Below are positions 3 to 7,801 of a DNA stretch of 7,801 nt, in pieces. The stretch comes from Naegleria gruberi (Eukaryota). The first letter of the stretch is position 1; the number at the start of each line of letters is the position of its first letter. The notes beneath the pieces are model-generated. The model saw nothing but the letters and a program-made list of their open reading frames with translations, had not been told where the DNA came from and made no database searches. A program made the translations under genes and the position numbers. The DNA is taken from assembly GCA_000004985.1 (NCBI GenBank), contig GG739104.1, one strand, 5' to 3'.

Positions 3-317
3 TTGAAACGAAAAAGAATGGAAGATAGTATTGATAATGTTTTAGATGCATTAGAACAAGAAGAAAAGAAACAAAAGAGATCTTACAGTAAGAGTAAGAG
101 TTCACTATTACCTTCCAAATCAAGTAGTTCCAACAATTTTGATTTATCAAATAGTGGCGCTAGTGGTAGTGGTAGTGGTGGTGGTAGTGGATTTGTTAAA
201 GCAAGTACACTCCTTCCCACAACATCATCATATCGATCATCAGAGATGAGTAATCGATCCAAGACAACAACAAATAGACCAAAGAGCAATTTGGAACGAT
301 TCATGTCAAAGAAGTAA
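3..317 (+). CDS. 3' terminal part of a protein-coding gene whose 5' end lies upstream of the window. The C-terminal tail is basic (KRKR), Ser-rich and SG-repeat-rich. Stop TAA at 315-317.
   Basis: Frame 3 is open from the window edge to TAA 315-317. Codons are dictyostelid-typical (ggt Gly, gaa, tta, caa, tca). The (agtggt)n block encodes SGSGSGGGSG. The antisense ORF 83..325 is a low-complexity shadow. Confidence 0.5.
   Translation: MKRKRMEDSIDNVLDALEQEEKKQKRSYSKSKSSLLPSKSSSSNNFDLSNSGASGSGSGGGSGFVKASTLLPTTSSYRSSEMSNRSKTTTNRPKSNLERFMSKK
153..191 (+). repeat. Imperfect hexanucleotide (agtggt)n microsatellite inside the CDS, encoding an SG repeat.
   Basis: agtggcgctagtggtagtggtagtggtggtggtagtgga read directly. 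Confidence 0.8.
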
Positions 318-2142: not shown

Positions 2143-3469
2143 ATGCCAAAACGCAAGAAACAAACTAAACGCAAAGAAACTTCTTCTCAACCCTCCTCCT
2201 CCTCCACACCTGCCACTAAAAAAGTAAAAACTGAGAAATTAAAAGCTCAACCACAAGCTCCTTCCGATAATCCCATCAGTGAAGAACCAATCGTTGTTCA
2301 TGACGATGATCCTGAATTATCCATCACAAATCATGAAAATATTTCCACTGCCGATGCCAAATATGAGCTCATTAGAACTCCTTTAAGCAATGGAGATGAA
2401 ACCTCTGATGACCTTGGATTGGAAATGATTGAACAACATCATTTACAATCAACTTTTAACATTTCCAAATATCTACCTAAGGAAAAGGGACATGCTATGA
2501 AAATTTATTGTATTGATTTGGGTTCTAGTTTTACAAAAGGTAACAAGTTTCAAATTGAACAAGGTAAAAGGGTGAGAGCATCTGTTTTAAAATTTGGTCA
2601 TCGAGAAAAGAGTCAATTTCTACCAACACGTACATTTTACAATTCAATTACAGGTGAAATTCAAATGGGAAGTGAATTGAAAGGTGAGAAATGGGAAGAA
2701 TTGGAAAATGTAAAAAAGATATTCATGGTCAGTGAATTGTTAGAAATTAGTCTCAATTCAAAGAAGAAATTAAGAGTTTCCAATGTTATTTACTTGATGA
2801 TTAAGGATTTAATTACTCAATTATTGACCACTAAAAAGGATGATCAAGCTTATTTAGAGGGAGTTACAGCTTGGATATTTACATGTCCAACAGGTACCTC
2901 TGAATATACTAAATTAATATTTAGAAATTGCATTTATCATGCCTATAATAAGTTAAAAATTAATATTGGTGATGATCATCCAATTACCATTGAAGATATT
3001 TATATTATGGAAGAGTATGCATTATTACAATATTTTGCTAATAATCAACAAAGATTATCGACCATGTTTGTTGATTTGGGTCATCTCACTTTGGATGTTG
3101 TTGTAATGGAATTAATACAGGGTGAATATATGGTAACATTTAAGAATGGAGAAACTTGTGGAATGTCAATCATTCATCAACTATTACACAGTAAGGGAAT
3201 GGATGCAAATGCCATTATGAAAGATTTATTTGAAAATTATTATGATTCTGATGAGTTACCACCATCTTTGAAGGCAATTGAAGAGGAAATTAATGAGAAA
3301 TTGAAATTGATTACCAAACCGCTATGTATGATGATTTTACAAAAACAAGCTGATTGTATTCACTTCTCTGGTGCAATTACAAGAGTTGCCTATTTTCAAA
3401 GGAAACTCAGAGAATATGTTAGCCAAGAACGGTTACAACATATTAAGAAGGAACTCACTCCCTACATGA
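2143..3469 (+). CDS. 5' part (442 codons, no intron needed) of a divergent Hsp70-like / actin-fold (ASKHA) ATPase-domain protein. It has a ~110-aa basic, Ser/Pro-rich N-terminal extension (MPKRKKQTKRKE...KKVKTEKLK, NLS-like). It is truncated by the assembly gap.
   Basis: Continuous frame-1 ORF from ATG 2143. Three motifs appear in Hsp70 order and spacing. (1) Phosphate-1-like IDLGSSFTKG at ~2512-2541 (cf. Hsp70 IDLGTTYSCV), followed by KFGHREKSQFLPTRTFYNS...GSELKGEK (cf. NDQGNRTTPSYVAF...GDAAKNQ). (2) Phosphate-2-like FVDLGHLTLDVVV at ~3070-3105 (cf. IFDLGGGTFDVSI). (3) Adenosine-motif-like CIHFSGAITRVAYFQRKL at ~3355-3408 (cf. IVLVGGSTRIPKIQKLL). Confidence 0.7.
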
Positions 3470-6436
3470 NNNNNNNNNNNNNNNNNNNNNNNNNNNNNNN
3501 NNNNNNNNNNNNNNNNNNNNNNNNNNNNNNNNNNNNNNNNNNNNNNNNNNNNNNNNNNNNNNNNNNNNNNNNNNNNNNNNNNNNNNNNNNNNNNNNNNNN
3601 NNNNNNNNNNNNNNNNNNNNNNNNNNNNNNNNNNNNNNNNNNNNNNNNNNNNNNNNNNNNNNNNNNNNNNNNNNNNNNNNNNNNNNNNNNNNNNNNNNNN
3701 NNNNNNNNNNNNNNNNNNNNNNNNNNNNNNNNNNNNNNNNNNNNNNNNNNNNNNNNNNNNNNNNNNNNNNNNNNNNNNNNNNNNNNNNNNNNNNNNNNNN
3801 NNNNNNNNNNNNNNNNNNNNNNNNNNNNNNNNNNNNNNNNNNNNNNNNNNNNNNNNNNNNNNNNNNNNNNNNNNNNNNNNNNNNNNNNNNNNNNNNNNNN
3901 NNNNNNNNNNNNNNNNNNNNNNNNNNNNNNNNNNNNNNNNNNNNNNNNNNNNNNNNNNNNNNNNNNNNNNNNNNNNNNNNNNNNNNNNNNNNNNNNNNNN
4001 NNNNNNNNNNNNNNNNNNNNNNNNNNNNNNNNNNNNNNNNNNNNNNNNNNNNNNNNNNNNNNNNNNNNNNNNNNNNNNNNNNNNNNNNNNNNNNNNNNNN
4101 NNNNNNNNNNNNNNNNNNNNNNNNNNNNNNNNNNNNNNNNNNNNNNNNNNNNNNNNNNNNNNNNNNNNNNNNNNNNNNNNNNNNNNNNNNNNNNNNNNNN
4201 NNNNNNNNNNNNNNNNNNNNNNNNNNNNNNNNNNNNNNNNNNNNNNNNNNNNNNNNNNNNNNNNNNNNNNNNNNNNNNNNNNNNNNNNNNNNNNNNNNNN
4301 NNNNNNNNNNNNNNNNNNNNNNNNNNNNNNNNNNNNNNNNNNNNNNNNNNNNNNNNNNNNNNNNNNNNNNNNNNNNNNNNNNNNNNNNNNNNNNNNNNNN
4401 NNNNNNNNNNNNNNNNNNNNNNNNNNNNNNNNNNNNNNNNNNNNNNNNNNNNNNNNNNNNNNNNNNNNNNNNNNNNNNNNNNNNNNNNNNNNNNNNNNNN
4501 NNNNNNNNNNNNNNNNNNNNNNNNNNNNNNNNNNNNNNNNNNNNNNNNNNNNNNNNNNNNNNNNNNNNNNNNNNNNNNNNNNNNNNNNNNNNNNNNNNNN
4601 NNNNNNNNNNNNNNNNNNNNNNNNNNNNNNNNNNNNNNNNNNNNNNNNNNNNNNNNNNNNNNNNNNNNNNNNNNNNNNNNNNNNNNNNNNNNNNNNNNNN
4701 NNNNNNNNNNNNNNNNNNNNNNNNNNNNNNNNNNNNNNNNNNNNNNNNNNNNNNNNNNNNNNNNNNNNNNNNNNNNNNNNNNNNNNNNNNNNNNNNNNNN
4801 NNNNNNNNNNNNNNNNNNNNNNNNNNNNNNNNNNNNNNNNNNNNNNNNNNNNNNNNNNNNNNNNNNNNNNNNNNNNNNNNNNNNNNNNNNNNNNNNNNNN
4901 NNNNNNNNNNNNNNNNNNNNNNNNNNNNNNNNNNNNNNNNNNNNNNNNNNNNNNNNNNNNNNNNNNNNNNNNNNNNNNNNNNNNNNNNNNNNNNNNNNNN
5001 NNNNNNNNNNNNNNNNNNNNNNNNNNNNNNNNNNNNNNNNNNNNNNNNNNNNNNNNNNNNNNNNNNNNNNNNNNNNNNNNNNNNNNNNNNNNNNNNNNNN
5101 NNNNNNNNNNNNNNNNNNNNNNNNNNNNNNNNNNNNNNNNNNNNNNNNNNNNNNNNNNNNNNNNNNNNNNNNNNNNNNNNNNNNNNNNNNNNNNNNNNNN
5201 NNNNNNNNNNNNNNNNNNNNNNNNNNNNNNNNNNNNNNNNNNNNNNNNNNNNNNNNNNNNNNNNNNNNNNNNNNNNNNNNNNNNNNNNNNNNNNNNNNNN
5301 NNNNNNNNNNNNNNNNNNNNNNNNNNNNNNNNNNNNNNNNNNNNNNNNNNNNNNNNNNNNNNNNNNNNNNNNNNNNNNNNNNNNNNNNNNNNNNNNNNNN
5401 NNNNNNNNNNNNNNNNNNNNNNNNNNNNNNNNNNNNNNNNNNNNNNNNNNNNNNNNNNNNNNNNNNNNNNNNNNNNNNNNNNNNNNNNNNNNNNNNNNNN
5501 NNNNNNNNNNNNNNNNNNNNNNNNNNNNNNNNNNNNNNNNNNNNNNNNNNNNNNNNNNNNNNNNNNNNNNNNNNNNNNNNNNNNNNNNNNNNNNNNNNNN
5601 NNNNNNNNNNNNNNNNNNNNNNNNNNNNNNNNNNNNNNNNNNNNNNNNNNNNNNNNNNNNNNNNNNNNNNNNNNNNNNNNNNNNNNNNNNNNNNNNNNNN
5701 NNNNNNNNNNNNNNNNNNNNNNNNNNNNNNNNNNNNNNNNNNNNNNNNNNNNNNNNNNNNNNNNNNNNNNNNNNNNNNNNNNNNNNNNNNNNNNNNNNNN
5801 NNNNNNNNNNNNNNNNNNNNNNNNNNNNNNNNNNNNNNNNNNNNNNNNNNNNNNNNNNNNNNNNNNNNNNNNNNNNNNNNNNNNNNNNNNNNNNNNNNNN
5901 NNNNNNNNNNNNNNNNNNNNNNNNNNNNNNNNNNNNNNNNNNNNNNNNNNNNNNNNNNNNNNNNNNNNNNNNNNNNNNNNNNNNNNNNNNNNNNNNNNNN
6001 NNNNNNNNNNNNNNNNNNNNNNNNNNNNNNNNNNNNNNNNNNNNNNNNNNNNNNNNNNNNNNNNNNNNNNNNNNNNNNNNNNNNNNNNNNNNNNNNNNNN
6101 NNNNNNNNNNNNNNNNNNNNNNNNNNNNNNNNNNNNNNNNNNNNNNNNNNNNNNNNNNNNNNNNNNNNNNNNNNNNNNNNNNNNNNNNNNNNNNNNNNNN
6201 NNNNNNNNNNNNNNNNNNNNNNNNNNNNNNNNNNNNNNNNNNNNNNNNNNNNNNNNNNNNNNNNNNNNNNNNNNNNNNNNNNNNNNNNNNNNNNNNNNNN
6301 NNNNNNNNNNNNNNNNNNNNNNNNNNNNNNNNNNNNNNNNNNNNNNNNNNNNNNNNNNNNNNNNNNNNNNNNNNNNNNNNNNNNNNNNNNNNNNNNNNNN
6401 NNNNNNNNNNNNNNNNNNNNNNNNNNNNNNNNNNNN
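3470..6436. other. Assembly/scaffold gap: 2967 consecutive N.
   Basis: Uninterrupted run of n read directly. The flanking ORFs in the track that cross it are all X. Confidence 0.97.
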
Positions 6437-6437
6437 A

Positions 6438-7801
6438 ATTAAAATTATGAATCAAAAATCAAATGAAATTGGAATACAAGAATCATTACATTATTNTTCT
6501 ATACAAAATTCTAATAATTCTAATAATATAAATGGAAATAATTCTAATAATAATTCTAATATATTACAATTATATTTAACTTTTTATTTTTGTGGACATT
6601 TTTGTCTAGTATTTGAAGAATTAGGAGAAACATTATTAAATTACATACAAAGATATCAACCATATACAATTAAAATGGAAATATTAAAGAAAATAACATT
6701 ACAATTAATAATAGGATTATTAATATTAAAACAAAATAATATAATTCATACAGATTTAAAACCTGAAAATATTTTAATGAAAAAATTAAATTCATCAAAA
6801 TTAAAAATTGCTGATTTTGGAAATGCAATTAATTATTTAGATAAATATCATTTAAATTTAAATATAGGAAGACAATTACAAACTTTATTTTATAGATCAC
6901 CTGAAGTTATATTTGGAAATTCAATAATTGATTTTCAAATGGATATGTGGTCAATTGGATGTATAATTGTTGAATGTTTTATTGGTAATCCTTTATTTAA
7001 TGCAAATAATTTAAATCAATTAATTAATCAAATGTTAAATTTACTTGGTCCTTTACCTTTAAATTTATTTAAAAATAATAATTTAAATAATTTAAATAAT
7101 AGTAATAATTTAAATAATAGTAATAGTAATAGTAGTAATGTAACTAGTAATAATTTAAATAATATAAATAATATAAATAATAATATTTATGAAAATAGTA
7201 ACAAATCAAGTTATTCATTTAGTAAGAAACATTTAAAATTAAGTAAATTAATGAGATTAAGATCAAATGATTATCAATTTGTATCATTTATTACTTCTAT
7301 ATTAGAATATGATCCTAAAAAAAGATTAACACCTGAAAAGGCATTATTTCATCCTTTTTTAAATTCTGTATTTCCATTTTCATTAAATATGATTTACAAT
7401 ATTAATAATAATTTAAATAATAATTTAAATAATAATAATAATTTAAATAATTCTATTGATTCTCAAACTATTATTATTAACAATAATAGACAAGAAGAAG
7501 AAGAGCAACAACAATTAATTTATGATAATAGTTTAATAACATCTCATAATAATAATAGTAATATTGGCAATGTTGGTAATAATATTAATCATGTGAATAT
7601 TACAATGTCATCATTAGCTCCAAAACATTCATTATCATATCAACAACAACAACCATCAATAACGACGACGAATCAAACACAACTGCAGCAGCAACAACAA
7701 CAACAACCCTATCATACAATGTTCTCTTCTTCAACAAGTTCAAGTGATTTGAGTTCTCCAACTCATAACAGACAACAACAACAATATATTCACCTCATCA
7801 A
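6438..7801 (+). CDS. Internal/3' part of a DYRK-like (CMGC group) Ser/Thr protein kinase. It covers catalytic subdomains IV-XI, with Asn-rich insertions and a Q/N/S-rich C-terminal tail. The 5' end is lost in the gap and the 3' end runs off the window.
   Basis: Frame 3 is open from the gap edge to the window end with no stop (checked codon by codon). Motifs in order: IKIMNQ (subdomain IV); HFCLVFEELGETLLNYI (V; cf. DYRK HLCLVFELLSYNLYDLL); IIHTDLKPENIL at 6741-6776 (VIb); KIADFGNA at 6804-6827 (VII); LFYRSPEV at 6885-6908 (VIII; cf. DYRK RFYRSPEV); DMWSIGCIIVE (IX); GNPLF (X); EYDPKKRLTPEKALFHPF at 7305-7358 (XI). Confidence 0.85.
   Translation, partial: MKIMNQKSNEIGIQESLHYXSIQNSNNSNNINGNNSNNNSNILQLYLTFYFCGHFCLVFEELGETLLNYIQRYQPYTIKMEILKKITLQLIIGLLILKQNNIIHTDLKPENILMKKLNSSKLKIADFGNAINYLDKYHLNLNIGRQLQTLFYRSPEVIFGNSIIDFQMDMWSIGCIIVECFIGNPLFNANNLNQLINQMLNLLGPLPLNLFKNNNLNNLNNSNNLNNSNSNSSNVTSNNLNNINNINNNIYENSNKSSYSFSKKHLKLSKLMRLRSNDYQFVSFITSILEYDPKKRLTPEKALFHPFLNSVFPFSLNMIYNINNNLNNNLNNNNNLNNSIDSQTIIINNNRQEEEEQQQLIYDNSLITSHNNNSNIGNVGNNINHVNITMSSLAPKHSLSYQQQQPSITTTNQTQLQQQQQQQPYHTMFSSSTSSSDLSSPTHNRQQQQYIHLI
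6507..6560 (+). repeat. Coding (aattctaataat)-type repeat encoding an NSNN run, inserted between kinase subdomains IV and V.
   Basis: aattctaataattctaataatataaatggaaataattctaataataattctaat read directly. Confidence 0.75.
7074..7184 (+). repeat. Coding Asn-rich low-complexity block built from aataatttaaat / aataatagt units (NNLNNLNNSNNLNNSNSNSSN...). It sits where CMGC kinases carry their insert between subdomains X and XI.
   Basis: Direct reading. The 12-mer aataatttaaat recurs several times. Confidence 0.8.
7401..7451 (+). repeat. Second block of the same aataatttaaat (NNLN) unit, just after the kinase domain.
   Basis: attaataataatttaaataataatttaaataataataataatttaaataat read directly. Confidence 0.8.
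7686..7706 (+). repeat. Poly-Gln tract (cagcag(caa)5, Q7). Shorter (caa)4 tracts lie at 7641-7652 and 7773-7784.
   Basis: Direct reading, in frame with the kinase CDS. Confidence 0.85.

Follow-up and report, generated by a model that had tools for sequence, protein, structure and literature searches.

A gap-truncated gene of Naegleria gruberi belongs to a Naegleria-specific family of predicted ASKHA-fold proteins

Does the open reading frame (ORF) that begins at position 2143 of a 7,801-nt stretch of Naegleria gruberi DNA (contig GG739104.1 of assembly GCA_000004985.1; the whole stretch is referred to below as the window) encode a decayed Hsp70, or a protein of another kind? A first-pass annotation, made from the sequence alone, had described the product as a highly divergent Hsp70/actin-fold ATPase-like protein, possibly nuclear and possibly impaired as an ATPase. 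The superfamily assignment held up, significant profile matches to the superfamily and a predicted ASKHA fold (actin/Hsp70/sugar-kinase; Pfam clan Actin_ATPase) both having been obtained in the end. The Hsp70 label was lost, since the Pfam HSP70 family (PF00012) was not matched and MreB and ParM were matched better. The interpretation favoured here, to which we assign a probability of roughly 0.6, is that the gene encodes a Naegleria-only ASKHA-fold protein that forms a branch of its own, is not an Hsp70, is regulated by nucleotide and is probably located in the nucleus.

The motifs on which the first pass had relied (IDLGSSFTK, DLGHLTLD and SGAITRV) and its clusters of Lys and Arg (K/R) are all present in an intact frame. 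On the plus strand, in AT-rich eukaryotic DNA, an ATG at 2143 opens 442 sense codons that are free of stops to base 3468, and the start is confirmed because the paralogues likewise begin with MP[AKR][RK]K. Position 3469, given earlier as the end of the ORF, is the final base ahead of a run of N, a truncation that had been overlooked. The run spans 3470-6436 (2,967 nt; a further single N stands at 6496) and, as it follows directly on codon 442, the window protein is truncated. By comparison with paralogues the full gene would be about 770-800 codons long. One N. gruberi protein of 376 amino acids (aa), P0004, begins at the position of Met397 of the window protein, is identical to it at 44 of 46 overlapping residues, with 96% identity over residues 398-442, and continues for about 330 residues beyond. 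Judging from P0004 and from P0002 and P0005, two full-length paralogues, the N run probably hides about 330 codons: those for the last part of the ASKHA core, including its GxSALLxGA motif, and then for a linker, the beta-rich domain and a putative four-Cys zinc finger. The gene, the gap and the nucleotide-site motifs are located as follows.

2143-3469, plus strand: 5′ part (codons 1-442) of a Naegleria-specific ASKHA-fold gene; continuous ORF, collinear with paralogues of 711-803 aa
3470-6436, no strand: N run, a scaffold gap or mask; limits exact
2503-2544, plus strand: phosphate-1 motif IYCIDLGSSFTKGN, aa 121-134; from family conservation and alignment to MreB IDLGTAN
2713-2715, plus strand: invariant Lys191 in N-[IV]-K-K-[IL]-F; 18/18 in the family
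2878-2901, plus strand: FTCPTGTS strand-loop, aa 246-253; counterpart of Hsp70 ITVPAYF and MreB VCVPxGxT
3001-3015, plus strand: connect-1 motif YIMEE, aa 287-291; hhalign register
3073-3096, plus strand: phosphate-2 motif DLGHLTLD, aa 311-318; aligned with DLGGGTFD and DIGGGTTE
3364-3384, plus strand: adenosine motif FSGAITR, aa 408-414; hhalign register

Bork, Sander and Valencia (1992) reportedly defined five ordered motifs, phosphate-1, connect-1, phosphate-2, adenosine and connect-2. All five are kept in the family to which the window protein belongs, as DxGSSFxK, IxEE, DxGHLTxD, GAIT and GxSALLxGA, and are in register with MreB and Hsp70. In phosphate-1, where IDLGSSFTK occupies aa 124-132 and D125 is encoded at nt 2515-2517, conservation within the family extends to D125 (18/18), G127 (17/17), S128 (17/17), S129 (17/18) and K132 (18/18), and the pattern D-x-G-S-x-x-x-K reads as the actin/ParM form of the motif, not as a damaged Hsp70 motif. 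The strand-loop FTCPTGTS, which aligned with ACPSGVTE of MreB and ITVPAYF of DnaK, keeps P249 in all 20 sequences and T247 and T250 in 19 of 20 each. E290 and E291 of connect-1 are each found in 19/19, and in phosphate-2 D311, G313 and D318 are found in 20/20, H314 in 16/20, L315 in 17/20 and T316 in 17/20, with Ser in the other three. The adenosine region (SGAITRV, aa 409-415) is equally constrained at G410 (25/25), A411 (24/25) and F418 (25/25). An adenosine motif is present as first proposed, in a register shifted by one residue: hhalign pairs GAITR (410-414) with GGSTR of Hsp70, and G410-A411 with G338-G339 of HSPA8.

The same alignments pair E291 with DnaK E171 and HSPA8 E175, D311 with HSPA8 D199, T316 with T204 and D318 with D206, so that counterparts of E175, D199 and T204, three of the HSPA8 residues which the first pass had singled out for comparison, are kept. 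For the fourth, the catalytic Lys71 of Hsp70, the invariant Lys191 is a candidate counterpart by motif resemblance only, lying outside all alignments. The claim that the motifs have the spacing of Hsp70 proved half right. Phosphate-1 and phosphate-2 are 186 aa apart, as in DnaK (186), whereas phosphate-2 and the adenosine motif are separated by 99 aa in place of the 139-147 of Hsp70, the 130 of MreB and the 110 of ParM, which makes for a reduced lobe II.

Compared with the Hsp70 motifs, GG has become HL in phosphate-2 and GA in the adenosine motif. The first of these changes had been read as degeneration with possible impairment of the ATPase. That reading was not sustained: DxGHLTxD is conserved as a family signature that appears to be under selection rather than in decay, and among PDB sequences the loops of Sse1 (VDIGHSSYT) and human HSP105 (VDMGHSAFQ) have Gly-His as well; the HSP105 nucleotide-binding domain (NBD) is titled as a complex with ATP and Mg in entry 6gfa. 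These observations also bear on a scaffold role, in which the ASKHA fold would be purely structural and bind no nucleotide, as in some nuclear actin-related proteins. His-Leu in place of Gly-Gly in phosphate-2 and Ala in place of the second glycine of the adenosine motif are what such a pseudo-ATPase might show; however, the acidic, hydroxyl and Lys residues of the site are invariant in 17-20 aligned sequences, which is hard to explain in a ligand-free protein, and Gly-His NBDs of Hsp110 as well as Ssz1, whose ATP-bound form has DLGGSRSD, have been crystallised with ATP and Mg according to their PDB titles. A pseudo-ATPase scaffold of this kind is considered very improbable.

Relatives of the window protein were sought at two depths. 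A word-indexed search returned four, two of them N. gruberi proteins and two from ENA metagenome contigs. An exhaustive HMMER search with a five-sequence profile found 35 proteins at E≤1e-3 among 1.84 billion cluster representatives, with no canonical Hsp70 or actin among them. All members that carry a source name come from N. gruberi, N. lovaniensis or N. fowleri, and every one of these is annotated as a "predicted" or "hypothetical" protein; the remainder are from metagenome contigs. Naegleria is a heterolobosean genus, and the earlier suggestion that orthologues be looked for in other Amoebozoa was misplaced. At least eight paralogues are present in N. gruberi on different scaffolds, at least eight gene models in N. 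lovaniensis (two adjacent split pairs among them) and at least three members in N. fowleri. The searched literature held no mention of the locus tags, nor of any Naegleria family of MreB-like or atypical actin-fold proteins. By these searches, the proteins constitute a previously undescribed multigene family confined to Naegleria.

The position of this family within the superfamily became visible as the profile grew. Against PDB sequences the thin five-sequence profile matched DnaK at a non-significant E of about 0.5, whereas with a profile of 38 sequences (alignment A3) all 19 matches at E≤10 were ASKHA proteins, the best of them being MreB (7bvy, E=5.4e-4), ParM (0.049), Ssz1 (0.1) and DnaK (0.2). 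Pairwise comparison of the family core by hhalign gave P=3.7e-6 for MreB (probability 87%), 6e-4 for ParM, 2.5e-3 for Hsp70, 0.015 for FtsA, 0.041 for Sse1 and 0.067 for actin; reversed-sequence controls all had P>0.28. A permissive alignment with MreB ran over 294 columns with the five ASKHA motifs all in register. In a Pfam scan of the 38 members at E≤1, the only recurrent matches were MreB_Mbl (PF06723; 4 members, best E=5.5e-4) and MreB-like_C (4 members); the four MreB_Mbl matches fell below the curated threshold and the window fragment had none. Pfam HSP70 was matched neither by the window protein (E≤10) nor by P0001-P0004 (E≤1), and does not figure among the 25 families which the scan of the 38 members listed (E≤1). 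Tested for membership of PF00012, the family thus falls outside it by sequence, other ASKHA families being nearer, and it is best placed as its own branch of the superfamily with MreB and ParM as its closest relatives in sequence. The likeness goes beyond chance, since the motifs are invariant or nearly so, the profile matches only ASKHA proteins and the predicted fold is ASKHA.

Besides giving the best sequence-level matches, MreB/Mbl shares with the Naegleria family the motifs C-P-[ST]-G-x-[ST]-E and I-x-E-E. The two differ in that the Naegleria family is eukaryotic, is found in one genus and stays below the Pfam threshold, has a lobe I larger by about 40 aa and GHLT where MreB has GGGT in phosphate-2, and adds about 100 disordered residues at the N-terminus and, at the C-terminus, some 320 aa that comprise the beta-domain and zinc finger. 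ParM/Alp proteins have in common with it the phosphate-1 form D-x-G-S-x-x-x-K, a phosphate-2 motif D-L-G-x-x-T-L-D (DLGGTTLD in ParM) and a similar interval from phosphate-2 to the adenosine motif; they differ in that their matches are less significant than those of MreB, and the Naegleria proteins are encoded in a eukaryotic nuclear genome, carry extra domains and have no partner context of the ParR/parC type. Descent from a horizontally acquired bacterial actin of the MreB/ParM type, still polymerising and with filaments coupled to DNA through its own zinc finger, would agree with MreB and then ParM being the best sequence matches in every test, with the actin/ParM form of phosphate-1 and with the ParM-sized lobe II, and the restriction to one genus fits a late acquisition. 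Such descent is nevertheless judged improbable: no bacterial or archaeal protein was found at E≤1e-3 among the 1.84e9 representatives, so that no donor lineage is visible, lobe I has the size of that of Hsp70 and not of MreB, and at least eight paralogues per genome together with long disordered tails are atypical of cytomotive actins.

Structure was approached through P0005, a full-length paralogue with 62% identity to the window fragment. Its model, built with the 38-sequence alignment (mean predicted local distance difference test score, pLDDT, 80.4; predicted template modelling score, pTM, 0.77), has a disordered segment at residues 1-71, an ASKHA core at 121-481 (pLDDT 85-97), a disordered linker at 499-537, a beta-rich domain at 540-700 and a small alpha/beta C-terminus. 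The core is predicted to consist of two alpha/beta lobes of the RNase-H type that flank a nucleotide cleft, the two-lobed arrangement which the structure prediction proposed in the first pass had been expected to reveal, and the ASKHA fold is well supported by this model. The values listed for its structural neighbours were 18.0 for MreB, 17.8 for the Ssz1 NBD, 17.7 for FtsA, 17.2 for ParM, 17.0 for CorM and 16.5 each for EutJ and HSP110; the modelled structure is thus equally near to MreB, FtsA, ParM, Ssz1 and Hsp110, and the branch is not settled by structure alone. The nuclear actin-related proteins (Arp4-Arp9, BAF53) are structurally further away than MreB, Ssz1 or FtsA, actin itself gave no signal at the sequence level (hhalign P=0.067, confined to the phosphate-1 motif), and the Naegleria family has no known HSA-helix partner. 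In a library of viral structures, Foldseek gave 21 matches at E≤1e-3 (lowest E=4e-12), all of them Hsp70 or Hsp70h, with alignments of 550-650 columns that cover most of the target at 10-12% identity. These viral proteins, from closteroviruses and giant viruses, are the sole significant fold matches in that library and resemble the Naegleria family in that a divergent C-terminal part comes after the ASKHA/NBD core; they differ in the low identity, and in that the family members have no viral or mobile-element context.

The viral matches argue for a very divergent true Hsp70 of the Hsp110/Ssz1 type, with a hydrophobic linker and a diverged beta-part of the substrate-binding domain (SBD), acting as a nuclear chaperone or co-chaperone. 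The 186-aa interval between phosphate-1 and phosphate-2 is likewise that of DnaK, Hsp110 and Ssz1 NBDs are among the top structural neighbours, non-canonical phosphate-2 loops are common to Hsp110/Sse1, where they contain Gly-His, and to Ssz1, and by eye the NBD is followed by a short conserved strand, P-[LIV]-x-[LIVF], and there is a loose likeness of GRxERIPVND to GKExKITITND of Hsp70. Other results point the other way. Pfam HSP70 was never matched; the hhalign values for Hsp70 (P=2.5e-3) and Sse1 (P=0.041) are weaker than that for MreB (P=3.7e-6); subdomain IIB is shorter than that of Hsp70 by about 40 (40-48) aa; and the family retains the Thr and second Asp of phosphate-2, both lost in Hsp110. 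The likeness to an SBD that had been seen by eye found no support in sequence: the C-terminal profile of the family gave P=0.41 against the Hsp70 SBD profile by hhalign and no match at E≤10 among all PDB sequences. In fold comparison, full-length Hsp70/110 chains score no higher than chains with the NBD only. A divergent Hsp70 is therefore regarded as unlikely, and the first-pass statement that the protein is not a standard chaperone stands.

In full-length members of the Naegleria family the C-terminal half, which the gap hides in the window copy, has the common pattern QDxEIF...GxxEFxRF...RxGRxERxPxND...TWYG, followed by four invariant Cys residues (CxxC, about 33 residues, CxxC) and a basic tail. 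The beta-rich domain is conserved and has no detectable relatives, and CxxC...CxxC suggests a C-terminal zinc finger. At the other end, AlphaFold gave the window protein a pLDDT of 26-36 (below 50) over residues 1-90, which predicts disorder; the basic N-terminus described in the first pass is present. This region has three features.

2143-2412, plus strand: Ser/Pro/Thr-rich N-terminal region predicted to be disordered, aa 1-90; pLDDT 26-36
2149-2175, plus strand: K/R cluster KRKKQTKRK, aa 3-11; candidate nuclear-localisation signal
2218-2244, plus strand: K/R cluster KKVKTEKLK, aa 26-34; candidate nuclear-localisation signal

Of 14 members scanned that were full-length or nearly so, 12 had runs of at least three K/R ahead of the core, and K/R clusters also occur in the C-terminal tails of many members. 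A nuclear-localisation signal in the K/R-cluster N-terminus is therefore plausible.

The favoured interpretation can be set out as a mechanism. A disordered N-terminus of about 90-110 aa with K/R clusters would be followed by a two-lobed ASKHA domain, a linker, the beta-rich domain, the zinc finger and the basic tail. Mg-ATP or Mg-ADP is most likely still bound between the lobes, since D125, S128/S129, K132, E290/E291, D311, T316, D318 and G410 are conserved. The G-H-L-T hairpin may, like G-H-S in Hsp110, slow or retune hydrolysis, and the domain would then serve as a nucleotide-dependent conformational switch rather than as a fast ATPase. K/R clusters at both ends, together with the zinc finger, suggest that the switch would be nuclear and would act on a partner, nucleic acid or chromatin, held by the C-terminal module.

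Several points weigh against this interpretation. As a single query, the 442-aa fragment had no ASKHA match in Pfam (E≤10), NCBIfam or PDB sequences, so that the profile hidden Markov model search recommended in the first pass failed with the fragment and succeeded with the family profile, and not one of the 38 members reached a Pfam gathering threshold. The high-confidence model is that of the paralogue P0005 and not of the window protein, the structural evidence consists of predictions, and the window copy itself lacks the last ASKHA motif and the entire C-terminal half. The spacing and hhalign comparisons used reference sequences entered by hand, for hhalign as small alignments, although the results are consistent with the independent Pfam and PDB results. 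In Hsp70 the backbone amides of the phosphate-2 turn glycines contact phosphate; with His-Leu in place of these two glycines, nucleotide binding could be weakened or lost. Finally, nuclear localisation and the binding of zinc, nucleic acid and ATP are predictions from sequence.

A more speculative proposal, to which we attach only a very slight probability, is that the family members are nuclear-imported, MreB/ParM-like polymerising ATPases with a built-in zinc-finger DNA module, in effect a self-contained "ParM plus adaptor". All rRNA genes of Naegleria are carried on a multicopy extrachromosomal circular plasmid. A "ParM plus adaptor" of this kind could segregate or position DNA, for example the ribosomal DNA plasmid, during the closed mitosis of Naegleria.

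Public gene models of the family are often cut, split into adjacent halves or started at an internal Met, as is the model of P0004 in N. gruberi. Adjacent pairs that represent one split gene include NAEGRDRAFT_68507/68508 and, in N. lovaniensis, C9374_001916/001917 and 000325/000326. In N. fowleri FDP41_000231/000232 and 000520/000521 contrast with the full-length CAG4714256.1 and CAG4719711.1. The models concerned are P0004, P0027/P0030, P0038/P0039 (against P0040), P0015/P0045 (against P0046), P0011/P0020 and P0018/P0025. The family is therefore under-counted and mis-annotated. In P0018 (N. lovaniensis, 727 aa) the profile matches only from about position 260 on, and the N-terminal region of about 280 residues, where phosphate-1 and lobe I would be expected, is Lys/Glu-rich and coiled-coil-like; either the architecture is a variant one or the gene model is faulty. 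Intronless full-length members (P0003, P0010 and P0002) lie on the metagenome contigs L002 and L003 (ERZ27315067) and L001 (ERZ929261), and further diversity of the family probably exists in uncultured Naegleria-like heteroloboseans. The member on an N. fowleri-like contig (L004) lies among ordinary genes of a eukaryote, which encode UFC1, an RRM protein and a peptidase S10. A mobile-element or viral origin was considered and rejected: apart from these ordinary neighbours, no notable terminal or inverted repeats, RNA families or tRNAs were found in the window, and no viral sequence was among the 35 family matches.

The N run truncates two genes at once, the ASKHA-like gene at its 3′ part and a downstream kinase gene at its 5′ part, and is long enough for about 1 kb of the former, an intergenic spacer and the N-lobe of the kinase. 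The kinase ORF (6437-7801, plus strand) encodes the C-lobe of a CMGC-type protein kinase and has no stop before the window ends; its frame, that of an ATG at 6447, is open at 6438 already. It has the motifs HTDLKPENIL, ADFG, SPEV and DMWSIGCI with long poly-Asn inserts, and a Pfam Pkinase match of 1e-37 that covers positions 48-263 of the profile. Its best relatives are CLK/DYRK kinases at about 30% identity, with no near-match from Naegleria or Dictyostelium. At 6437-7570 its GC content is 16.5%, that of third codon positions (GC3) 4.6%, and ATA serves for 19 of 39 Ile codons, against 32%, 25% and 4 of 37 in the ASKHA gene (2143-3468); past about 7577 the GC content within the kinase ORF rises to 32-38% (7577-7801). 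This break in composition could mean that a contaminant or a wrongly joined scaffold lies beyond the gap, or that the gene is of extremely low complexity. Upstream of the ASKHA gene, 1.8 kb (318-2142, GC 30%) contains no ORF of at least 100 aa and may be an intron-containing gene or intergenic; within it are (AGT)n and Ser/Asn-coding microsatellites (888-938) and short overlapping ORFs on both strands without a Pfam match (1260-1705). At the start of the window (3-317, plus strand) an ORF reaches its 3′ end; its product, Ser/Gly-rich and of low complexity, ends in ...RFMSKK* and belongs to no Pfam family, and the ORF includes a (TAGTGG)5 repeat at 161-190.

The actin/Hsp70 fold is among the oldest nucleotide-switch modules, and new branches of it in eukaryotes are rare. 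The family described here is invisible to Pfam, to NCBIfam and to single-sequence searches, and no described counterpart was found for its combination of an actin-fold core with an orphan beta-domain and a zinc finger. If its members polymerise, they would be an instance of a bacterial-type actin in a eukaryote. The family is present in the human pathogen N. fowleri and absent from its host, so that it could serve as a Naegleria-specific marker or target. If the proteins bind nucleotide and are nuclear, they would represent a lineage-specific regulator in an organism of unusual nuclear biology.

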